Positions 10,543 through 35,772 of a DNA stretch of 48,077 bases are shown here, in pieces. Within the stretch, counting starts at the first letter, position 1. Every line of letters begins with the position of its first letter. The position numbers and the translations under genes were made by a program. This DNA comes from Pseudomonadota bacterium (lineage in GTDB: Bacteria > Pseudomonadota > Gammaproteobacteria > Ga0077536), in contig JANOVQ010000620.1 in assembly GCA_031417495.1 (NCBI GenBank), forward strand, positions 1 to 48,077, read 5' to 3'. The notes under the pieces are model-generated. The model made no database searches and was not told where the DNA came from. It saw only the letters and a list, made by a program, of their open reading frames with translations.

Positions 10543-11358
10543 ATGGTGAACCCGCTTCGCGAATTGCGTGCGGCGGCCGCGCAAGCCTTCGCGCTGGCCG
10601 ATCCTGCCGCTAAATGTGCGTCTGTCGCAGCGCTGCAAACTGCTGCTGCACAAGGCGCGTTGAGCCTCGATACTGCGCACATTTTTACCACCCACCAGGA
10701 ACCCGGGCGACCCGCGCGACCGCTGCTTATTCATCCGGCAAAAGTACCGCGTCGCCGACTTGGCACACCCGCTGGACGCACTGCGCTCATTCATGCGTTG
10801 GCACATATCGAGTTCAATGCGATCAATCTCGCGCTGGATGCCATCGCGCGATTTCCTGATCTGCCCGAGGCCTATTATTTTGACTGGCTCAAGGTGGCCG
10901 GAGAAGAGGCACACCATTTCGACTTATTGGTCGCACGCTTGATGGACTTCGGTCATGGCTATGGCGATTTCCCGGCGCATGATGGGTTGTGGGAAGTGGC
11001 GGCCAAGACCTGTCACGACGTGCTCGCTCGAATGGCGTTGGTCCCGCGGATTCTCGAGGCGCGTGGCTTAGATGTCACGCCGGGTCTGCAGGCGCGGCTG
11101 CAGGCAGTGGGGGATGTGGCGTCGGCGGCGATCCTGGAAATCGTCCTGCGCGATGAAATCAAGCACGTCGCAATCGGCAATCATTGGTTCACATTTTTGT
11201 GCCGGCAACGCGGCTGTGTGCCACCCGCGACGTTTCTCACGCTGTGCGAGACACATGCGATTAAGCCGCCACATCCGCCGTTCAATGTGCCGGCGCGGCG
11301 CGCCGCAGGTTTCGACGACGACGAACTCAGCGCGTGGGTGGTTCTCGCGCAAAACTGA
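10543..11358 (+). CDS. DUF455 ferritin-like domain protein
   Basis: HALAHIEFNAINLALDA, EEAHHFDLL, YGDFPAHDGLWE, LEARGLDVTP and DEIKHVAIGNHWF match my recollection of the DUF455 di-iron-like family. Start taken at ATG 10543. Confidence 0.7.
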   Translation: MVNPLRELRAAAAQAFALADPAAKCASVAALQTAAAQGALSLDTAHIFTTHQEPGRPARPLLIHPAKVPRRRLGTPAGRTALIHALAHIEFNAINLALDAIARFPDLPEAYYFDWLKVAGEEAHHFDLLVARLMDFGHGYGDFPAHDGLWEVAAKTCHDVLARMALVPRILEARGLDVTPGLQARLQAVGDVASAAILEIVLRDEIKHVAIGNHWFTFLCRQRGCVPPATFLTLCETHAIKPPHPPFNVPARRAAGFDDDELSAWVVLAQN

Positions 11359-11755
11359 GCTCGATCCGATTGCGCTCAGCATGCCGCGCGTAGTGGGCGC
11401 TGGTGGCGAGGCCCTCGACCAACAAGATGCCAAGGCCGCCAATTCGACGATTATCAGAGTCTTCTTGCAAGACCGCCCGATCAACCGACAAAAATGGATC
11501 GTACGCGGCCCCGTCATCTTCATAGATTATCTGCACGACCTCGGCGGTGGTGTGGACACTGAGGTAGATCTTGCCTTCCACGCCATCGCGGCGGCCATGG
11601 TGGACGCTGTTCAAGAATAATTCTTCCAGGACTAGCGCGAGCTTGTGGGCCAGGTGCGAGGGCAGCGCCAATTGGTTGGCATGCGCGGCGATTTGCGCGA
11701 GTAACGGGCTGAGTTCGCTTTGGATGGCGCGAAAACCCTGTTGCTCAATCTCCAT
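11327..11755 (-). CDS. RsbW/SpoIIAB-type serine kinase (anti-sigma-factor-like HATPase)
   Basis: 142 aa from ATG 11755. N-box LEELFLNSVHHG, DDGAAYDP (G1-like) and IGGLGILLV (G2-like). The size is typical of partner-switching kinases. Confidence 0.75.
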   Translation of the reverse strand: MEIEQQGFRAIQSELSPLLAQIAAHANQLALPSHLAHKLALVLEELFLNSVHHGRRDGVEGKIYLSVHTTAEVVQIIYEDDGAAYDPFLSVDRAVLQEDSDNRRIGGLGILLVEGLATSAHYARHAERNRIELSFAREPPTR

Positions 11756-11830
11756 TTTGAGAACCCTGCAATTGCGATGTCCAAACACTACTATACGTAC
11801 GTGCCATACGGGCGCTGGGAGAATACGGCC

Positions 11831-12295
11831 ATGCCGCTGCACGTTGTGACTACTTTTTGGGCGACTATTTTGTGGTTGGGGGTTACCGTAGCAATGGGCG
11901 GATACGCCTGCGCGGCGGAGACCACCGGTATTATTAAAACCCTGCAAGGGACGGTTTCGGTAGAACGCGCCGGCACCACGCTTCCGGCCCAGCTCGGGGC
12001 GTCCGTGCTGGAAGCCGATCAGATTGTCACCGGTGGTGATGGCAGTGTCGGGGTTACCTTCCAGGACAACTCGTTGCTTTCTCTTGGTCCGAATAGCCGC
12101 CTCGCTATCGCGCATTTCAATTTTGATTCGACCACCCACGATGGCAATTTCGAAACCGTCCTGACGCGTGGCAAACTCGCGGTGATCTCGGGCAAGATAG
12201 CGAAACACCAGCAAGATGCCATGAAGGTGCGGACCCCTTCGTCTATCCTCGGCGTGCGTGGCACCGAGTTCCTGGTGGAGGTCACGGCGCCATGA
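11831..12295 (+). CDS. secreted FecR-domain protein
   Basis: The signal peptide ends YACAAE. A FecR-like beta-rich domain follows (GIIKTLQGTVSVER...DQIVTGGDGSVGVTFQDNS...LGVRGTEFLVEV). The start is ambiguous among 11720, 11780 and 11831. Confidence 0.7.
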   Translation: MPLHVVTTFWATILWLGVTVAMGGYACAAETTGIIKTLQGTVSVERAGTTLPAQLGASVLEADQIVTGGDGSVGVTFQDNSLLSLGPNSRLAIAHFNFDSTTHDGNFETVLTRGKLAVISGKIAKHQQDAMKVRTPSSILGVRGTEFLVEVTAP

Positions 12296-12894
12296 AAAGT
12301 TTGTCGGCGGCGGGCCTGCTTATTTTACTGACGGGTTGTGCCAGCGTACCAGTTGAGCACGCCGCCGATCGCGTGGTGTTGCTCCCCGGCCCGGACGGTA
12401 GGCTCGGTAAGCTGGCGGTGACGTCGTCCGCGGGTGCCACCGTGCTCGATCAAGCTTATGGCATCGCGGCGGTCAGCACCGCCGGCAAGGTGGCGAATAG
12501 TCGCGGCGACGAGGCCGTCGTTCGGCGCGATTTTGCGACCACCCTCGCTGCGCTGCCGCCGCGCCCGGTATCGCATACGCTGTATTTCGAGCACGATTCG
12601 GATCGGCTCACGCCAGCGTCGGAGGTCGCGGCACAGGCGATTCTGGTCGAGATCGCGGCGCGGCCGGTCGCCGACATCATCGTGATCGGGCATACCGATA
12701 CGGTGGGCGAGCTCGTGTACAACGACCAGCTGTCACTGCAACGTGCGAATGCCGTGCGTGCGCGCCTGATTCAACTGGGCGGTGCCGCCGGTCGGATCAG
12801 CGCGGCCGGGCGCGGCGAACGCGAGCTCGCGGTGGAAACCCGAGATGACATGCATGAGCCTAGGAATCGACGGGCCGAACTGAATGTGCGTTAA
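12292..12894 (+). CDS. OmpA-family lipoprotein (peptidoglycan-binding)
   Basis: Lipobox LLTGC. The OmpA C-terminal-like motif is GHTDTVGELVYNDQLSLQRANAV...NRRAEL. Has a 4-nt overlap with the FecR gene. Confidence 0.85.
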   Translation: MKSLSAAGLLILLTGCASVPVEHAADRVVLLPGPDGRLGKLAVTSSAGATVLDQAYGIAAVSTAGKVANSRGDEAVVRRDFATTLAALPPRPVSHTLYFEHDSDRLTPASEVAAQAILVEIAARPVADIIVIGHTDTVGELVYNDQLSLQRANAVRARLIQLGGAAGRISAAGRGERELAVETRDDMHEPRNRRAELNVR

Positions 12895-13117: not shown

Positions 13118-15202
13118 CTACGTGGTCCGGCGCAGACACAATAACGTAATGTCGTCGGCTTGTTCGGTGTCGCCCACGAAGGAGGCGAGCGTCGCAGTCA
13201 CTGTGTGAATGAGTTCGGCGGCGGTCGCCTCGGGTGCTGCCGCGCGCAGGCAGGCATGCCAGCGCGCGGCGCCGAATAATTCACCGGTGGCGTTGTTCGC
13301 CTCGGTTACCCCGTCGGTTACCAGGCAGACCGCAGCGCCTGCCGTGAGGCTCGCATGGGAGGTCTCGTAGTGGTAGTCGTCCAACGCGCAAAGCGGAGGG
13401 CCTGAGCCGGAGAAAGGAGTCTCCAACGCGCCGTCCAGCAGGAGCGCGGGGCTGTCGTGTCCCGCATTCGACCAACGTAATGCGCCGGTATCGAGATTGA
13501 GTTCTGCCGCAAACACCGTGAGGAAGAGAAATTCCGGGTTGTCGTGGGTAAGCGCGCGATTCGCTGCGCTGAGGGCGGGCCCGGGATCCCCCTCAGCGCG
13601 CAGCACGGCGCCGCGGATCTGCGCCTTGGCCAAGGCCATGAACAATGCGCTCGGCAAGCCTTTACCGGACACATCGCCCACCAGCAGGAAGAGGCGCCGC
13701 TCGTCCAGCAGAAAAAAATCGTAGAGATCCCCGCCCACTGATTTTGCGGGCACCATGGCGCTGCCGAGAGTGAAGCGATGGTCGTGTGCGAACTCCCGTG
13801 GCTCGGGCAGCATGCCGAGCTGAATACGCCGCGCGGCATCCATCTCGCCCTGCATGCGCACCTCCGCTTCACGCGCGTGGGCCAATTCACGGTGCAAATT
13901 TCGACGTTGCGCCCGGGTCTCGGCCAACACCGCGCCCAAGGTGGATAACAGAACGAGCGCGCCGCCCATGCTGGGGTTGGCCACATCGAGCAACCAACCG
14001 CGCGCGACGAACGCCGCCATCGCGCCACCGGCGAGCGCGGCGCAGGTGGCCGCAAAACAGAGGATGGCGAGCAACGGTGGCCAGTAGATCACGCTCGCAA
14101 TCGCGCCGACACCGAGCCCCAGCAGGACCACAACTTCGAGTGTCGCGGTACGGTTGGTGCGCGTCAGCAGGCGCCCAGCCAGGGCATTTTCGAGGGCTTC
14201 AGCGTGGGCCTCCACCCCGGGCATGCGTCCCAATGGCGTCGCGACCGTATCCTGCAGGCCAAGTGCGGTGTAACCGATCAGCACGATCCGCCCGCGCAGG
14301 ATGTCGTGCTCGAGCTTGTCGCGCAGGACGTCGGCCGCCGAATAGGCCGGGCGCTCTTCCCAGCGCGAGAAATGCAGCCACCATTCGCCATTCGCGTCAG
14401 TTGGGATGCGGATACCCGCCACTTGGACCGCGCGAATACCAGCGCTGGACATTTCAACCCGCAGCGGATCGGTGCCGCCGAGATAGCGCAGGGCTTCCAC
14501 GGCGAGACCAGGGACGAGATGCCCCGCGGTGGTCCCGATCAAGGTCGGCAGGCGGCGCAGAATGCCCTGCTCGGCATCGGCGTTCAGCGCCCCGTGGCCG
14601 CGCGCGGCGTTATCCAGGACGGGCAGATTGCGCAGTAATCCGGGATAGCGGCGCACGAAATCGAGCGCGTTACCGCCGCGCTGGAGGATTAGGCTCGCCG
14701 CCGTCGTCGCCGCAGGCTGGGCCGCGGCTTCGGGGATGCCGGCCACGGCAAGGACCACCGGCGCGGCGCTGAGTGCGCGGGTCAGTTCCACGTCGCCATC
14801 AGGCAAAGTGGCGACCAGCCGCGCCGCGTCCTGTGGGTCGAGGCCAAGTTGCATTGCAAGCGCATGCGGCGCGTATTGATCTGGTTCGACAAACAAGGCA
14901 TCGATCACGATGACGGCGGGTTTGGCGGCGGCGATCTGGGCGATGAGGCCCGCCATGCGGGCACGTGGCCATGGCCATTGGCCAAAGGCCGCCAAGCTGC
15001 GTTCGTCGATTTCGACGATAACCACCGGCGCGGTGGTCCGGGCGCGCGGAAAGAGGCGCTGATAGACATCGAACCACTCGGTGCGCAGCAGGGTTTCCAA
15101 GCGGGTATCCCCCACCGCCAAAGTCACCGTGACTAAGGTTAATACGCCCAGGCCAATCAGCGCGGCGCTCCAGGGCGTGCGGGCGCGGCGCTCTTCACTC
15201 AC
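13118..15202 (-). CDS. CHASE2 sensor / PP2C (SpoIIE-type) serine phosphatase
   Basis: 694 aa. The order is an N-terminal TM helix, a roughly 330-aa periplasmic region of CHASE2 type, three TM helices, a coiled coil, then a PP2C domain with GDVSGKGLPSALFMA and VTDGVTEA. Confidence 0.8.
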   Translation of the reverse strand: MSEERRARTPWSAALIGLGVLTLVTVTLAVGDTRLETLLRTEWFDVYQRLFPRARTTAPVVIVEIDERSLAAFGQWPWPRARMAGLIAQIAAAKPAVIVIDALFVEPDQYAPHALAMQLGLDPQDAARLVATLPDGDVELTRALSAAPVVLAVAGIPEAAAQPAATTAASLILQRGGNALDFVRRYPGLLRNLPVLDNAARGHGALNADAEQGILRRLPTLIGTTAGHLVPGLAVEALRYLGGTDPLRVEMSSAGIRAVQVAGIRIPTDANGEWWLHFSRWEERPAYSAADVLRDKLEHDILRGRIVLIGYTALGLQDTVATPLGRMPGVEAHAEALENALAGRLLTRTNRTATLEVVVLLGLGVGAIASVIYWPPLLAILCFAATCAALAGGAMAAFVARGWLLDVANPSMGGALVLLSTLGAVLAETRAQRRNLHRELAHAREAEVRMQGEMDAARRIQLGMLPEPREFAHDHRFTLGSAMVPAKSVGGDLYDFFLLDERRLFLLVGDVSGKGLPSALFMALAKAQIRGAVLRAEGDPGPALSAANRALTHDNPEFLFLTVFAAELNLDTGALRWSNAGHDSPALLLDGALETPFSGSGPPLCALDDYHYETSHASLTAGAAVCLVTDGVTEANNATGELFGAARWHACLRAAAPEATAAELIHTVTATLASFVGDTEQADDITLLCLRRTT

Positions 15203-16182
15203 CTGGCGGCGAGATCGATTTCGAGACCGTCGTAGGCGGTGGTGACTTTCAGTGGCGGGCGTCCATTACGCGAGATTTCTTCGAAGCGGCGGGTCTCGGC
15301 CTCGACGCTCGCAATGCGCGTGTCATCGAACATCGGTTCGTGATGAAACAACGCGAGATGGCGGGCGCCGGCCATCTGGCACAGCTCAACCCCGGTGACA
15401 TTGCTGGAATGCCCCCAATCCTCCTTTACCGACACGGCTTCGGCGAACGAATACATCGCGTCAAAAATCACGAGATCGGCCGCGCGGAAAAAATCGACGA
15501 AGCGCTCGGTGATTTTGGGTTCATCGAGTTTGTGCTCGGAATCTGTCGAATACACCAGCGTGTGCTGTTGAGTTTCGAAGCGATAACCATAGGAATCGCC
15601 AACGTGTAATTGGCGGAGCGGGGTGACCTGCAGGCCCGCGATTGTGTGGCACCGGTCTGCGGTTAGGGTGATGAATTCGATGCGCGCGCCTAATTGATCG
15701 AACTCCACCGGAAACGAGGGCGTCCCGTGTTGGCGCCGAAAAGCAGCTTCGAGGTCGGCATGACAGCCATAAATCCGAATCTGATTACCGGGAATATAGG
15801 CGGGCGCAAACAACGGGAAGCCCATGATGTGATCCCAGTGCACATGGGACATAAACACATGGAAAATATTTGGCGTTTGCGCGCCATGCTGGGCGAGTAC
15901 CGCATTGCCAAACGGGCGGACACCGCTGCCGAGATCGCACAGCACATATTCATGCGAGTGCTGGCTTGGCGGCGTGAGCTCCAGCTCAACACAACTTGAG
16001 TGCCCGCCATAGGTTTGTGCGAGATGAAAGGGCAGGGTTAGCGCGAACGCCTGTGCTTCTTCAAGAGTGGCATATTGACGGCCTTGGGCGGCGAGTAAGG
16101 CGTGGCCAATTTTGCGCGCCACCTGCGTGGCCGTCAGCGAAACCGGCAACGAACCCCGTGTGCCCCAGAACCGCGCGCGCAT
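15199..16182 (-). CDS. MBL-fold metallo-hydrolase (paralog 1)
   Basis: Has the HVHWDH (HxHxDH) motif, N-terminal RFWGTRGS and GGHSSCVE. The 4-nt overlap with the phosphatase gene suggests translational coupling. Confidence 0.8.
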   Translation of the reverse strand: MRARFWGTRGSLPVSLTATQVARKIGHALLAAQGRQYATLEEAQAFALTLPFHLAQTYGGHSSCVELELTPPSQHSHEYVLCDLGSGVRPFGNAVLAQHGAQTPNIFHVFMSHVHWDHIMGFPLFAPAYIPGNQIRIYGCHADLEAAFRRQHGTPSFPVEFDQLGARIEFITLTADRCHTIAGLQVTPLRQLHVGDSYGYRFETQQHTLVYSTDSEHKLDEPKITERFVDFFRAADLVIFDAMYSFAEAVSVKEDWGHSSNVTGVELCQMAGARHLALFHHEPMFDDTRIASVEAETRRFEEISRNGRPPLKVTTAYDGLEIDLAAR

Positions 16183-16185
16183 CCT

Positions 16186-16554
16186 TCACGCGCTCAGCTG
16201 ACTGCCGGGAGACAGCGCCTGCAGTCCGTCGGCTACGGTGGCGTACACCGGAAATACCAGATTGAAGCGGGTGATTTCCAGCACTTCGCGCACCACGGAA
16301 TGGGGTGCTGCGACGGCGATTTCGCCGCCCACCGGCTTTGTTCGCTTGGTCGCGACCATCAACACGCGCAGCCCGGCACTGCTGATGTAGTCGAGTGCCG
16401 AGAGATCGAATAACAAGCGATCACCGCCTGTTTTGCAGTTCTCGAGATACGGCGCGAGCGCAGCGTTGAAGGTGGCGGCTGCTTCGTGATCGATGCGCCC
16501 GAGCGGTTTGAGCACGATCACGTCGGCACGGCGTTCGAACGACAGTTCCATCAA
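16186..16554 (-). CDS. STAS-domain anti-sigma-factor antagonist (SpoIIAA/RsbV-like)
   Basis: 122 aa. DLSALDYISSAGLRVL carries the conserved phosphorylatable Ser context. It ends 3 nt before the MBL start. Confidence 0.8.
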   Translation of the reverse strand: MMELSFERRADVIVLKPLGRIDHEAAATFNAALAPYLENCKTGGDRLLFDLSALDYISSAGLRVLMVATKRTKPVGGEIAVAAPHSVVREVLEITRFNLVFPVYATVADGLQALSPGSQLSA

Positions 16555-31798: not shown

Positions 31799-32494
31799 AT
31801 GTTTAATGAGGATTACACGCTCGTCCTGGACATGGACGGGACCTTGCTCGATTTGAACTTTGACGATCAAGTCTGGAATTTTGCGTTGCCGGCGGCACTC
31901 GCGACCAGGGACGCTCGCACGTTAAGTGAGGCGCGCGAACACGTCGCGCTTACCTTGGATGCAGTGCGCGGCACTTTACCCTGGTACTGTCATGATCATT
32001 GGGAGCGTCAATTCGGTATCTCAGTTCACGAGCTGGAGGTTCAGCTCGCGCATTTCATCGGAATCCGCGCCGGTACTGTTGAGTTCCTGCACTTTCTACA
32101 ACGCCATGCGTATCGCACGATACTGGCGACCAATGCGCATCCCGCCAGCTTGGCGCGCAAAATGGAACGCACGGGCCTCGCAGGGTATTTCACGACCTTG
32201 GTCAGTGCGCACACGCTTGGTGTGCCGAAAGAGGCGCCTGAGTTCTGGCACGCCCTAGAGTCGCAAATTCAATTTGATCCCGCCCGTGCCGTGCTGGTCG
32301 ATGACAATCTAGCGGTGCTGAGCACTGCCCGCGCAAGCGGCCTGCGCCATGTATTTGGGGTGCGCTCGCCAAGCAGCACTGGTCTGGCGAAGGAATTCCC
32401 CTGCTTCGCGAGTGTGGACAGCCTGACGGAATTAATTCCGTGGCTAGTCCGCGCGCGCGAGCGCGAATTCATGCACCGCGCGGTCATCGGCTAG
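31799..32494 (+). CDS. HAD-family GMP/IMP nucleotidase (YrfG-like)
   Basis: LVLDMDGTLLDLNFDDQVW, LPWYCHDHW, ILATNAHP and LVDDN align by eye with E. coli YrfG. Confidence 0.75.
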   Translation: MFNEDYTLVLDMDGTLLDLNFDDQVWNFALPAALATRDARTLSEAREHVALTLDAVRGTLPWYCHDHWERQFGISVHELEVQLAHFIGIRAGTVEFLHFLQRHAYRTILATNAHPASLARKMERTGLAGYFTTLVSAHTLGVPKEAPEFWHALESQIQFDPARAVLVDDNLAVLSTARASGLRHVFGVRSPSSTGLAKEFPCFASVDSLTELIPWLVRAREREFMHRAVIG

Positions 32495-33130
32495 GGCGCG
32501 CGCTTCGAAGCGCGTGCGGCTGCGTGCTTTCAGGCGTGGCGCAAAGACGCCGCGACCGGCGAGATTAAGCCAGCCGGTTTGAGTGCTTAGTTGCAGCGTG
32601 ATGTCCTCCGCGTAATCAGCGCTGTCGGTCGCGATATACACCCGGCCATTGCGCCGCACCGGCCGCAGGAGCATCGCCAAGAACGCCGCCTGCACCAGAC
32701 GCCGTTTGTGGTGACGCGCTTTGGGCCAGGGATCCGGAAAAAAAATGTAGACTGTGATCAGGCATTCGTCAGGCAATCGGGTGAGTACCGCATGGACATC
32801 GCAGACGCTCACGCGCACGTTCTGCAACTCAGATATGACGACCTGGTTGAGCAGGTGGCCGACGCCAGGTCGGTGCACTTCGACGCCTAGATAATCGTTC
32901 GCGGGGTTCCGCGCTGCGCACGCATGCAGGCAATCACCATTGCCAATGCCGATCTCAAGATAGACTGGCGCGCTGCGCACAAATTCTTTATTTAGATCAA
33001 GCTCACCTTCGGCGCTCAGCGAGAATTTCGGCAACAGGTTTTGTACGGCGCGAAGTTGCGCCCCGGTCATGCGACCTTCGCGGCGCACGAAACTCCGAAT
33101 TTCGCGCCGCGGTGGCGGATCCGTGGGCAT
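32444..33130 (-). CDS. trmB: tRNA (guanine-N7)-methyltransferase
   Basis: From ATG 33130: IRSFVRREGRMTGAQ, LEIGIGNGD and IFFPDPWPKARHHKRRL, the classical TrmB motifs. The gene sits downstream of thiG, as I recall for Pseudomonas. Confidence 0.88.
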   Translation of the reverse strand: MPTDPPPRREIRSFVRREGRMTGAQLRAVQNLLPKFSLSAEGELDLNKEFVRSAPVYLEIGIGNGDCLHACAARNPANDYLGVEVHRPGVGHLLNQVVISELQNVRVSVCDVHAVLTRLPDECLITVYIFFPDPWPKARHHKRRLVQAAFLAMLLRPVRRNGRVYIATDSADYAEDITLQLSTQTGWLNLAGRGVFAPRLKARSRTRFEARALADDRAVHEFALARAD

Positions 33131-33140
33131 CAGGCAAGTT

Positions 33141-33950
33141 TCAGCTGAAAAAAGTCCCATCCAAGGGCGAGGAGGCTGAGGCATGGAGGCGCCGTGGCAT
33201 CCGCCCGGCGCAATAGGCAAGGCGTCCCGCGATGACTGCGTGCCGCATCGCGCTGGCCATTTGGAGCGGATCGCGCGCTTCGGCAATCGCCGTGTTCATG
33301 AGGACGCCCGCGCAACCCAACTCCATCGCGATGCTGGCGTCAGACGCGGTGCCGACGCCAGCATCGACAATAACGGGGACTTTGATCGTCTCCACAATTT
33401 CGCGAATGGTGTAGCGATTTTGCAGCCCCAGGCCGGACCCGATCGGCGCGGCCAGCGGCATGATTGCGACACAGCCGATTTCTTCCAGGCGGCGCGCCGC
33501 AATGGGATCGTCGGTGGTGTAAACCATCACTTCGAAGCCCTCGCCGCACAGGATTTCGGCTGCGCGTATGGTCTCTACGATATTTGGGTAAAGCGTTTTC
33601 GGATCGCCCAGGACTTCCAGCTTGACGAGGCGGTGGCCGTCGAGCAGCTCACGCGCGAGCCGACAAGTTCGCACGGCACTTTCTACGTCGTAGCAGCCGG
33701 CGGTATTGGGCAGAATGGTGTAGTGATCGGGCGTCAGATAGTCGAGCAAATTCGGTTCGCCTGCATGCTGACCCAGATTGGTCCGCCGAATGGCGACGGT
33801 GACGATCTGAGCGCCACTGGCGGCGATAGCTTCGCGCGTCTGCGCGAAGTCGCGATACTTGCCGGTGCCGACCATCAGGCGTGAGGCATAGCTTACGCCG
33901 GCGATAATAAGTGGGTCGGTGTGGTCAGGGGAGATTTGCGTCATAAACAC
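33141..33950 (-). CDS. thiG: thiazole synthase
   Basis: [28 protein letters not shown] and [13 protein letters not shown]. Confidence 0.93.
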
Positions 33951-33988: not shown

Positions 33989-34186
33989 CTAACCGCCACC
34001 AATCGCCTTAACAATTTCGACGGTGTCATTCGGCTGCAAATGATACGCGCCAAATCGACTGCGCGGCACAATTTCGCCATTCACTTCAACCGCAAGCCGC
34101 CCGCGCACCGCGAGTTCTACCAGCAGCGCCGCAAGCGACAACGGTGGTTTGAACACCCGCAGTTCTCCGTTGAGCACGATCTGCAT
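33989..34186 (-). CDS. thiS: sulfur carrier protein ThiS
   Basis: 66 aa from ATG 34186, starting MQIVLNGE and ending in the IVKAIGGG C-terminal Gly-Gly. The longer ORF-track start is rejected. Confidence 0.85.
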
Positions 34187-34194
34187 GGCTGCAC

Positions 34195-35103
34195 TCACAG
34201 AGGGACGACGCTGCCCTCCCGTGCGACCTGAATCTGCAGGTGGGAACCCCGGGTGCTCGCGATTTGCTCGCATTCGCGATGAATGGCCGCCACGCGCGCG
34301 TCGTCGTAGGTTGGATCATGGTGATAGAGGTAGAGCGACTTCACCTCGGCGTCGATCGCAAAATTGACCACGTCCACGTAACAGGAGTGGCCCCAGCCGC
34401 GCTTCTTCGCGTAATCCTCCGGGCTGTATTGTGCGTCGTGGATCAGGAAGTCGGCACCTCGAATTGCCGACAATTCGGCCGCGCGCTCTTCGTTTTGCAT
34501 GCGCGTGATCATGCGATGTTCGTCGGCACTGAACTCGTCGGCGCGCCGCGCGATCGACGAGCGCAGAAAGTCTATTTCGTTATCCGACATATAGACGATA
34601 ACCTTGCCAGCGACTTCGATGCGGTAGCCGTAAGTCACGCCTGGATGATGCACGTTGTGGTAAGTGAGGGTAAATGGACCATGCTGGATCTGTCCGGCGA
34701 GCGCATCCACGTACTCAATCGCGGCCATCCAGGTTTCAATTTCAACGGGAAAGTAGGGCGACTTCATCTGGTTCGACAGCCGCTGCTCGATATCCTTGGC
34801 CGTTTGACCGGGTCCGAAGAAGCGAATTTTCCAGTTCGGCGAGAAGGCCGGTTGAAAAAACGGCAGGCCGCAAATGTGATCCCAGTGGTAGTGGGTAAAA
34901 ACGATCAAGGTTTCCGGCATCTTGTGGGCTGCCATCAACTGCTCACCCAGTGGGATGATGCCAGTCCCGCCATCACAGACTAGCAGATGTTCGCCAGCGC
35001 GGATTTCGACGCAAGATGTATTGCCGCCCACGCCGAGATGGCTCTGGTGAGGCGCGGCATAGGAGCCGCGCACGCCCCAGAAGCGAAGATAGGGCTCGGT
35101 CAC
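34195..35103 (-). CDS. MBL-fold metallo-hydrolase (paralog 2)
   Basis: RFWGVRGS, GGNTSCVE, CDGGTG and THYHWDHICGLPFF, the same blocks as the 15199..16182 protein. Has a 4-nt overlap with the receiver gene. Confidence 0.8.
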   Translation of the reverse strand: MTEPYLRFWGVRGSYAAPHQSHLGVGGNTSCVEIRAGEHLLVCDGGTGIIPLGEQLMAAHKMPETLIVFTHYHWDHICGLPFFQPAFSPNWKIRFFGPGQTAKDIEQRLSNQMKSPYFPVEIETWMAAIEYVDALAGQIQHGPFTLTYHNVHHPGVTYGYRIEVAGKVIVYMSDNEIDFLRSSIARRADEFSADEHRMITRMQNEERAAELSAIRGADFLIHDAQYSPEDYAKKRGWGHSCYVDVVNFAIDAEVKSLYLYHHDPTYDDARVAAIHRECEQIASTRGSHLQIQVAREGSVVPL

Positions 35104-35507
35104 GGGCGTGGCTGCTCCGCGCTGGTGTAGCGACCGATGAGCTCAACGATATGGCGGGTGGTCATCGGTTTGGCGACGAATTCCACGACCCCGAGTTCGC
35201 GCGCTGTCGCGCGATCCTGCGCGTAATCCTTCGAACTGATCATGATTGTCTGGGTCTCTTGATGTAACGGTTGACGCCGGAGCTCCTGCAAGAAGGTGAG
35301 GCCATCCTTTGCCGGCATGATGATATCCAGAAACAGGAGCGCAGGCTGATGGGTTTCAAGAAATGGCGCAGCGGCTTCGGCCGACGCGAAAGTGCGCAAA
35401 TCGACTGCGAGATCCGCCAACACTTTTTCGAAAAACACCCGCACAGCGGAACTGTCGTCCACCACGACGACGAGAGGAGCTGAAGAATTTTGTGCTGTGT
35501 GTTCCAT
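35100..35507 (-). CDS. stand-alone response-regulator receiver (CheY-like)
   Basis: From ATG 35507: VVVVDDS, LFLDIIMPAKDG (phospho-acceptor Asp context), and a late IMISSKD...AKP. Confidence 0.8.
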   Translation of the reverse strand: MEHTAQNSSAPLVVVVDDSSAVRVFFEKVLADLAVDLRTFASAEAAAPFLETHQPALLFLDIIMPAKDGLTFLQELRRQPLHQETQTIMISSKDYAQDRATARELGVVEFVAKPMTTRHIVELIGRYTSAEQPRP

Positions 35508-35698
35508 GATGATCTGTAAAGGCGGCGCAATCGGGATTGAGGCAGCCGGCGCCACTATAAGTCAAGGTGCCGGTAAGTGGCGAGCGTGATCACGGGAAGC
35601 GGCCACCTCGCGCACCCGGACCCGGGGCATCGCGTCCTAGGTCGAAGTGCGGCGCGTCCTTTGACGGGCGCAGGCAAACGACTAAAATGGTTCGCGCT

Positions 35699-35772
35699 GC
35701 GGGTGTAGTTCAATGGCAGAACATCAGCTTCCCAAGCTGAGAGCGTGGGTTCGATTCCCATCACCCGCTCCA
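35699..35772 (+). tRNA. tRNA-Gly (anticodon CCC)
   Basis: GCGGGTGTAGTTCAATGGCAGAACATCAGCTTCCCAAGCTGAGAGCGTGGGTTCGATTCCCATCACCCGCTCCA. The acceptor stem is GCGGGTG/CACCCGC, the anticodon loop is TTCCCAA, GGTTCGATTCC forms the T-arm, and CCA is encoded. Near-identical in architecture to E. coli glyU. Confidence 0.93.

Follow-up and report, generated by a model that had tools for sequence, protein, structure and literature searches.

Background

The control of second-messenger-type phosphodiesterases by switch proteins is already known in kind. Bacterial RpfG combines a receiver (REC) domain with an HD-GYP domain, and HsbR/HsbA-HsbD is a case of partner switching that has an enzyme as its output. 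In Dictyostelium, RegA consists of a REC and a class I cyclic AMP (cAMP) phosphodiesterase (PMC11988041), and in the SiaABCD system of Pseudomonas aeruginosa, SiaC activates the cyclase SiaD (PMC8457831). In addition, Thomson et al. defined, by the signature [T/S]HxHxDH, the atypical class II phosphodiesterases, namely, Rv1339 of Mycobacterium tuberculosis, CpdA of Corynebacterium glutamicum and YhfI (PMC9293780). Here we describe two hydrolases of the metallo-beta-lactamase (MBL) fold, denoted MBL1 and MBL2, that are encoded in a contig of 48,077 nucleotides (JANOVQ010000620.1, assembly GCA_031417495.1) from a gammaproteobacterium of the Ga0077536 lineage; this entire stretch is hereinafter called the window. 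As the first-pass annotation of this DNA had reported, each of the two enzymes is encoded directly downstream of a small signalling protein, namely, a REC the gene of which overlaps that of MBL1 by 4 nucleotides and a STAS protein the gene of which is separated from that of MBL2 by 3 nucleotides. The four genes are as follows.

34195..35103, minus strand: MBL1, an MBL-fold (Lactamase_B_2) hydrolase of 302 residues, REC-linked branch (Pfam, alignment, AlphaFold2)
35100..35507, minus strand: REC, a single-domain CheY-like receiver of 135 residues, partner of MBL1 (PF00072, 5.5e-21)
15199..16182, minus strand: MBL2, an MBL-fold hydrolase of 327 residues, STAS-linked branch (Pfam, alignment, tree)
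16186..16554, minus strand: STAS, a single-domain protein of 122 residues, of the anti-sigma-factor-antagonist type, partner of MBL2 (PF01740, 6.6e-17; TIGR00377, 6.1e-20)

The overlap consists of a GTGA common to the stop of the REC gene and the start of the MBL1 gene, and the gap lies between the STAS stop (16186) and the MBL2 ATG (16182). MBL2 is located about 19 kb from REC-MBL1, likewise on the minus strand.

With RegA and RpfG, the REC-MBL1 pair would share a receiver that switches a phosphodiesterase, and the natural REC-MBL fusions described below have the same N-to-C order of domains; unlike in those systems, the enzyme has the MBL rather than the HD fold, the receiver in the window is a separate protein and the substrate is putative. 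The STAS-MBL2 locus resembles SiaABCD and HsbA-HsbD in that a small switch protein has its state determined by a PP2C phosphatase together with a serine kinase; its target, as we propose here, is a second-messenger enzyme rather than a sigma factor. In contrast to SiaABCD, the putative output is a hydrolase, that is, breakdown rather than synthesis by a cyclase, and the input is a CHASE2 sensor with FecR and OmpA partners; furthermore, compared with SiaC-SiaD, binding of STAS to MBL2 is what adjacency and fusions suggest. The atypical class II (PF12706) phosphodiesterases of cyclic nucleoside monophosphates (cNMPs), to which BA1088 also belongs (PMC9293780), are similar to MBL1 and MBL2 in having an MBL fold devoid of an exosite and the [T/S]HxHxDH signature. 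However, the identity to the best structural matches among them, BA1088 and YhfI, is 18-19%, the proteins of the MBL1/MBL2 family are 50-80 residues longer, and they possess features of their own, namely, the N-terminal FWGxRGS motif, an invariant Cys, the WGHS and HHDP motifs and clade-specific insertions. Moreover, the atypical class II enzymes stand alone whereas the MBL1/MBL2 family is wired to REC or STAS. What is new here, then, is the catalytic family and the wiring.

Two ancient paralogues of one MBL family

MBL1 and MBL2 had been assigned to one specific MBL subfamily from shared sequence blocks, and this assignment is correct: the two proteins are 32% identical over 291 columns (E = 7e-42, BLASTP) and both match Lactamase_B_2 (PF12706; 1.3e-13 and 51.4 bits for MBL1, 1.6e-18 and 67.5 bits for MBL2, with a gathering cut-off of 27), yet they come from two deep branches. 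They are the only two proteins of this kind in the genome (4.4 Mb, 95% complete). The aligned common blocks are RFWG(V/T)RGS, GG(NT/HS)SCVE, CD(G/L)G(T/S)G, H(Y/V)HWDHI, YGYR, WGHS and HH(D/E)P; among the blocks listed previously, these stand, whereas the one given as PFF.PAF reads PLFAPAY in MBL2. The two proteins also differ by insertions: 37 residues following RFWGTRGS are found in MBL2 and its close relatives and not in MBL1-type proteins, and a helical insertion of 22 residues is present in MBL1 and not in MBL2.

The family is large. A profile search that covered 1.84 billion representative proteins, clustered at 50% identity, yielded 11,696 clusters at E <= 0.001 and 2,402 at E <= 1e-30. 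The maximum-likelihood tree of 162 MBL domains, rooted at the midpoint without an outgroup, splits into two groups, each with a support of 91% in the Shimodaira-Hasegawa-like approximate likelihood-ratio test, which is under the 95% star level of the method. Group A comprises, besides the MBL1 clade, the REC-MBL fusions and a clade that is mainly myxobacterial, whereas group B comprises the MBL2 clade and every STAS-containing architecture. Because the tree places them in the REC-linked and the STAS-linked group, respectively, MBL1 and MBL2 thus appear to be old paralogues, each on the branch that matches its own type of partner.

Conservation of the pairing with switch proteins

Gene neighbourhoods were compared in two sets of 80 loci each, the first from genomes and ranked on MBL1, the second from metagenomes and ranked on MBL2; both consist of the best-scoring loci rather than a random sample of the family, and genes were taken from simple open reading frame (ORF) calls. 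The former set includes 34 loci with MBL1 orthologues (51-75% identity), all from Gammaproteobacteria. Among the 33 of these with enough upstream DNA, an orthologue of the REC is located directly upstream of MBL1 in 32; in the exceptional locus, from Candidatus Parabeggiatoa (L025, 4064-5989), the REC is found about 1.5 kb upstream of the MBL gene. The usual gene order is priA, argS, a SPOR gene, REC, MBL1, thiS, thiG and trmB, the part from REC to trmB being present in about 20 orthologue loci. In genomes of the Thiotrichales type, the REC-MBL1 pair has other flanks; in two loci, the pair is inverted relative to thiG and trmB; and in the more distant orthologues, the thiS-thiG neighbourhood is lost or inverted, with REC and MBL kept together. 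Because the flanks vary or invert while the pair persists, REC and MBL1 thus form a conserved two-gene unit. As a side observation, two ORFs take the place of a single MBL1 orthologue in L022 (6001-6912) and L026 (5516-6367), which points to a frameshift or pseudogene or else to faulty assembly.

The partner RECs themselves carry a mark of the association. At the junction of strand beta4 and helix alpha4, they share the signature [ST][ST]KDYxQD[RK], which reads SSKDYAQDR in the REC of the window; it was detected in 33 of 34 aligned sequences (the 32 partner RECs, the window REC and one fused REC) and is encountered exactly once in the six-frame translation of the genome.

The pairing of MBL2 is similarly stable. 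At loci with MBL2 orthologues (58-70% identity), a STAS gene is directly upstream in 67 of the 74 testable cases, and two STAS-MBL fusions and two loci with a convergent STAS gene bring the total of adjacent or fused STAS to 71 of 74. Among cultured relatives, Solimonas and Nevskia also have the MBL2 cassette. Both serines of the Ser-Ser motif are retained almost without exception (69/72 and 72/72 partner sequences), an RsbW-like kinase recurs in the cassette at many loci, and a PP2C gene, beside which FecR-like and OmpA-like genes recur, is downstream of MBL2 in 54 of the 59 testable loci. Thus, the recurrent association with REC or STAS that was suspected from the two loci in the window is indeed enriched among the homologues (32/33 with REC upstream, 71/74 with STAS adjacent or fused), to which many fusions are to be added.

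Natural fusions of the enzyme with REC and STAS

Among the best 150 representatives of the family, 103 are stand-alone proteins and 47 are fused with STAS or REC. The majority of the fusions (36 of the 150) are long proteins that combine MBL, STAS and a protein kinase and often extend into an AAA_16 domain and TPR repeats; another 8 are short, with the order STAS-MBL or MBL-STAS, and 3 are REC-MBL proteins. The architecture MBL-STAS-Hanks kinase-AAA_16-TPR, with 1,200-1,650 residues, is represented by P0257, P0266, P0271, P0276 and about 30 others, and these proteins constitute a single large clade of the STAS-linked branch.

When the REC-MBL fusion from locus L035 was used as a seed, more than 100 further fusion clusters were recovered, for which the NCBI name is only 'response regulator'. 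At least one such fusion is encoded directly behind a PAS-HisKA-HATPase-REC hybrid kinase, and the acceptor Asp is invariant in the 65 aligned fusions. AlphaFold2 models the fusion as one rigid two-domain body (predicted local distance difference test, pLDDT, 90.7; predicted template modelling score, pTM, 0.91), in which helix alpha5 of the REC passes straight into the first strand of the MBL domain.

We considered the possibility that the fused RECs are orthologues of the window REC and rejected it: the window REC is not among the matches of three fused RECs in a tblastn search of this genome at 1e-5. Because the fused RECs are not its close relatives, receivers appear to have been recruited independently, more than once. 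Given that the fused RECs are distant and that STAS is found at either the N-terminal or the C-terminal side of the enzyme, links to switch domains apparently arose several times, and these multiple origins are the strongest argument for a physical cooperation of the enzyme with switch proteins.

Active site and enzyme class

The predicted metal ligands of MBL1 are D44, H71/H73/D75/H76, H153, D174 and H261, plus H239 in WGHS. The metal ligands, together with this H239 and D223, are invariant or nearly so in the 162 sequences, in every architecture. Because of this invariance of the metal ligands, the MBL domain is, as far as its sequence tells, catalytic rather than a degenerate module for binding.

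The AlphaFold2 model of MBL1 (pLDDT 92.8, pTM 0.91) was compared with the PDB using Foldseek. The top matches are BA1088 of Bacillus anthracis (1zkp) and YhfI of Bacillus subtilis (6kns), with TM-scores of 0.79-0.80 on the target and 18-19% identity, followed by RNase Z, a PhnP-family diphosphatase, ELAC1, PqqB, a Brucella MBL protein crystallised with AMP or GMP, PhnP and Apyc1; altogether, the PDB neighbours are 12-19% identical to MBL1. In phmmer searches, the E-values to YhfI are 2e-5 and 9e-5. The [T/S]HxHxDH signature fits both proteins (THYHWDH in MBL1, SHVHWDH in MBL2), with the caveat that this motif is weakly specific and RNase Z fits it too.

We then asked which of the curated models could accommodate these proteins, and none did, the scores being under the respective cut-offs or no match being found. 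In particular, MBL1 and MBL2 score 66.7 and 54 bits, respectively, with the tRNase Z model TIGR02651 (cut-off 292.95), the PhnP model TIGR03307 gives 23.4 and 25.2 bits (cut-off 272), and NF041851, the model of the cyclic nucleotide-degrading phosphodiesterase, gives 56 and 40 bits (cut-off 400), the latter being a narrow model that 0 of 14 control genomes passed. There was no match to PF02112 (class II phosphodiesterase) in scans of MBL1, MBL2 or the whole genome; as for Apyc1 (PF23023, cut-off 50 bits), MBL1 and MBL2 are not among the matches of the genome at E <= 1, and only their relatives have a weak precomputed match. We conclude that MBL1 and MBL2 apparently represent a separate family among those ElaC-like phosphodiesterases of the MBL superfamily that have no exosite.

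A proposed mechanism

Starting from the homology, the intact active sites, the gene adjacency and the fusions, we propose a scheme in which the binding, the direction of control and the substrate are conjectural. MBL1 and MBL2 would be catalytically active, binuclear-metal phosphodiesterases that serve as the enzymatic outputs of two types of phospho-switch. That they are functionally coupled outputs of the switch proteins we consider probable; that gating is effected by phosphorylation, as the first-pass annotation also suggested, we infer.

For MBL1, a histidine kinase would phosphorylate the Asp of the REC, the beta4-alpha4 face (SSKDYAQDR) would change, and the hydrolase activity of MBL1 would change as a result. 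It is the beta4-alpha4 face that shifts upon phosphorylation in canonical receivers, and we infer that this face, with its signature, is the contact with MBL1. In the window REC, alignment with the 32 orthologues indicates that all the residues involved in phosphorylation are kept, namely, the acidic pair in VVDD, the acceptor Asp in LFLD-IIMP, the Ser in ISS and the Lys in AKP.

For MBL2, the output would be that of a partner-switching cassette without a sigma factor. The trio characteristic of such systems is complete in the window, with STAS (PF01740), an RsbW-type kinase (PF13581) and PP2C (PF07228), and no sigma factor gene is found among the genes and domains of the cassette. The window STAS carries the phospho-serine motif Y-I-S-S-x-G-L-R. 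The remaining members of the cassette are as follows.

13118..15202, minus strand: fusion of a CHASE2 sensor with a PP2C (SpoIIE-type) phosphatase (PF05226, 5.6e-52; PF07228, 5.7e-43)
11327..11760 (the end at 11760 being approximate), minus strand: RsbW-like serine kinase, HATPase_c_2 (PF13581, 3.3e-18)
11720-12295, plus strand: FecR-like envelope protein (PF04773)
12292-12894, plus strand: OmpA-like envelope protein (PF00691)

The CHASE2-PP2C gene overlaps the MBL2 gene by 4 nucleotides, and the best named NCBIfam match of its PP2C part is SiaA. The ORF of the RsbW-like protein, as listed, extends to 12214, with the domain occupying just the last ~130 residues. The CHASE2-PP2C protein is the presumed STAS phosphatase and the RsbW-like protein the presumed STAS kinase, which together would set the serine phosphorylation of STAS; the FecR-like and OmpA-like genes are accessory members. 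One of the two STAS forms would bind MBL2 and switch it, in analogy with SiaC-SiaD, and the insertion of 37 residues in MBL2 is a candidate docking site for STAS.

The surroundings of the REC-MBL1 pair comprise the following features.

35554..35583, minus strand: promoter-like site upstream of REC, TCGCCA, an 18-nucleotide spacer and TATAGT (consensus scan only)
35699-35772, plus strand: tRNA-Gly(CCC), divergent from the REC promoter-like region, with the 3' CCA encoded in the gene
33989..34186, minus strand: thiS (PF02597), its ATG 8 nucleotides past the MBL1 stop
33141-33950: thiG, downstream of thiS
32444-33100: trmB, after thiG

An alternative start of the REC gene can be read at GTG 35555, and it is the ATG at 35507 that agrees with the promoter-like site at 35583-35554. 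The tRNA-Gly(CCC) marks the boundary of the REC-MBL1 unit. At the other end, no separate leader precedes thiS, the ATG of which follows the MBL1 stop so closely that thiS may be co-transcribed with MBL1.

The substrate and the alternative explanations

Taken as a whole, our reading is that these proteins are switch-controlled, binuclear-metal phosphodiesterases, the substrate of which is most likely a cyclic nucleotide or a related phosphodiester, and we regard this reading as evenly poised between right and wrong. In the more specific form of the proposal, the substrate would be cAMP, cyclic GMP or a closely related nucleotide phosphodiester, and MBL1 and MBL2 would be the regulated 'off' arms of the very large cyclase network of this organism. 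The case for a cyclic nucleotide is circumstantial, and we consider such a substrate plausible, if somewhat short of probable. In this genome, at least 32 class III cyclase domains are accompanied by about 28 cNMP-binding domains, whereas whole-genome scans detected no CpdA of the Escherichia coli type, no PF02112 enzyme and no true RNase Z; the best matches of this genome to NF041851 are MBL2 and MBL1. An evenly drawn sample of 400 genomes of the class includes 48 with the family, and a class III cyclase is found in 47 of these 48 compared with 219 of 353 family-negative genomes (Fisher p = 2e-8, uncorrected for relatedness and genome size). Individual loci fit the same pattern. In genome G223 (L176, G223:C9, 2172-4909), a family MBL gene is located between a cNMP-binding-Rce1-like gene and a convergent class III cyclase gene, a triad that looks like a set for sensing, degrading and making the messenger, and in two related genomes, a Ser/Thr kinase with a C-terminal cNMP-binding domain is encoded directly upstream of REC-MBL1 (L022, 4048-5340; L016, 18-281).

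A number of observations weigh against one or another part of this reading. The association with cyclases, being uncorrected, may in part reflect relatedness or genome size. Cyclase or cNMP-binding genes are located within 6 kb of only about 9% of the family loci, too few for a conserved link, which we accordingly discarded; this proximity could be due to chance in cyclase-rich genomes. We likewise abandoned non-orthologous displacement of CpdA by this family: CpdA is, if anything, more common in the family-positive genomes (29/48 compared with 152/352 of the others). By profile, RNase Z is marginally nearer to the family than BA1088 (3e-13) and YhfI (1e-10), and RNase Z-type chemistry on RNA is possible. 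There is no histidine kinase gene near the window REC. Our literature search turned up neither a description of MBL hydrolases linked to REC or STAS nor a characterised member of the family, and the first-pass annotation could likewise name none; in PMC1262709, beta-lactamase is mentioned just as a kinase substrate. Of the 32 orthologous RECs, 20 have Asp at the acceptor position; in the other 12 it is replaced, with Asn found in 10 of them and Ser and Gly in one each, so phosphorylation cannot be the universal signal. Finally, a third clade of the family, mostly from Myxococcota, has no REC or STAS neighbour in any of its 46 loci, as judged with our own hidden Markov models and Pfam.

The loss of the acceptor Asp suggests that phosphorylation was given up in some REC lineages. 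Given that the Asp is lost in 12 of 32 receivers, yet the metal ligands are invariant in the 162 family sequences (of which 6 are REC-adjacent MBL1-type enzymes), the REC looks like an obligate regulatory subunit of MBL1. The pseudo-receivers that accompany an intact enzyme are those of L006-L010, L017, L021, L023, L026 and L036 (Asn), L018 (Ser) and L033 (Gly).

As for the third clade, the MBL gene is directly followed by a gene for a GAF-sigma54 activator-HTH_8 regulator in 11 of its 46 loci (L042, L047, L053, L061-L063, L070, L076, L079, L082 and L083), which we count as one more circumstantial hint at a cyclic nucleotide. Some ORFs of this clade are long (L059, L077, L064 and others) and were examined as potential new fusions; they contain no additional Pfam domain and are probably the result of ORF over-extension in GC-rich DNA.

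The alternative that survives best, and that we nevertheless consider unlikely, is that MBL1 and MBL2 are switch-controlled RNases or oligonucleotide phosphodiesterases, acting on RNA or on linear oligonucleotides, for example pGpG-type products, and not on cyclic mononucleotides. Indeed, the enzymes of the tRNase Z/RNase BN (ElaC) type are the closest relatives by profile, the best matches among the solved structures being the RNases Z of B. subtilis (4.5e-17) and E. coli (3.3e-16); they share with MBL1 and MBL2 the HxHxDH motif as well as an HST-like loop (WGHS) and a HEAT-like loop (HDAQ). Among the NCBIfam models, MBL1 matches TIGR02651 best, and in this genome, which lacks a true RNase Z, it is MBL1 that best matches the RNase Z model. 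However, the TIGR02651 scores of both proteins are far under the cut-off, and the nearest folds are those of BA1088 and YhfI, which have no exosite. Moreover, the match to the RNase Z structure 1y44 breaks exactly at the exosite (flexible arm), with nothing aligned to RNase Z residues 154-212, and the conserved Pro in the alignment of MBL1 and MBL2 is followed by no K-x-R-N, so the PxKxRN loop is not seen either; this loop and the flexible arm between motifs III and IV are what we take to be the hallmarks of tRNase Z. The adjacent tRNA-Gly gene encodes its own CCA and therefore needs no 3' endonucleolytic trimming.

It is improbable, in our estimate, that the MBL protein acts on its own partner, as a phosphatase of phospho-Ser STAS or phospho-Asp REC, or that it is a ligand-sensing input. 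Overlapping genes and fusions imply a tight stoichiometric coupling, which would fit a pair of enzyme and substrate, and the MBL-STAS-kinase fusions contain no separate phosphatase domain. Conversely, the STAS cassette already includes a dedicated PP2C phosphatase at nearly all testable loci, the REC is N-terminal in the fusions, as is usual in response regulators, where the input precedes the output, and the metal ligands are invariant even though more than a third of the orthologous receivers cannot be phosphorylated on Asp. Protein phosphatases of this type that have an MBL fold are not known to us.

Equally improbable is another small phosphoester as the substrate, be it a ribose cyclic phosphate of the PhnP kind, a diphosphate or a compound related to thiamine, with the switch tuning a metabolic step. 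Many members of the family bear the Joint Genome Institute (JGI) label 'phosphoribosyl 1,2-cyclic phosphodiesterase', the fold matches include PhnP as well as a diphosphatase of the PhnP family, and thiS closely follows MBL1 in an order that recurs in about 20 loci. Against this explanation, the scores with the PhnP model are less than a tenth of its cut-off, there are no phn genes nearby, thiS-thiG is lost or inverted in the distant orthologues while REC-MBL persists, and MBL2 has no metabolic neighbours.

Adjacency devoid of regulatory meaning, in which housekeeping hydrolases merely share operons with signalling genes, would agree with the partner-less third clade and with a coupling deduced from gene context, but is highly improbable given the two partner types, each kept across dozens of distant loci, the independent fusions at both termini with independently recruited receivers, and the partner REC signature that occurs once in the genome.

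Implications

Bacteria that have dozens of adenylate or guanylate cyclases, the present one included, need a means of signal removal, and few bacterial cNMP phosphodiesterases are known, almost none of them known to be regulated. Joining the several lines of our proposal of switch-controlled phosphodiesterases, we can tentatively envisage this family as the missing, directly regulated cNMP-degrading arm of such bacteria, a module that would have been captured repeatedly and independently, both by receivers, whether split, fused or Asp-less, and by STAS switches, whether adjacent to the enzyme, fused at either terminus or combined with Hanks kinases. On this view, the breakdown of a second messenger would for the first time be the output of a partner-switching system, namely, the STAS cassette. 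This joint picture is less secure than any of the broader claims made above.

If the proposal is correct, the family would represent a new and very widespread output domain for both two-component and partner-switching signalling. A function could then be assigned to thousands of genes that are currently labelled 'MBL fold metallo-hydrolase', 'response regulator' or, misleadingly, 'phosphoribosyl 1,2-cyclic phosphodiesterase'. Furthermore, the split and fused forms, and the receivers with Asp and with Asn, would provide natural matched sets for the study of how small switch proteins control enzymes.

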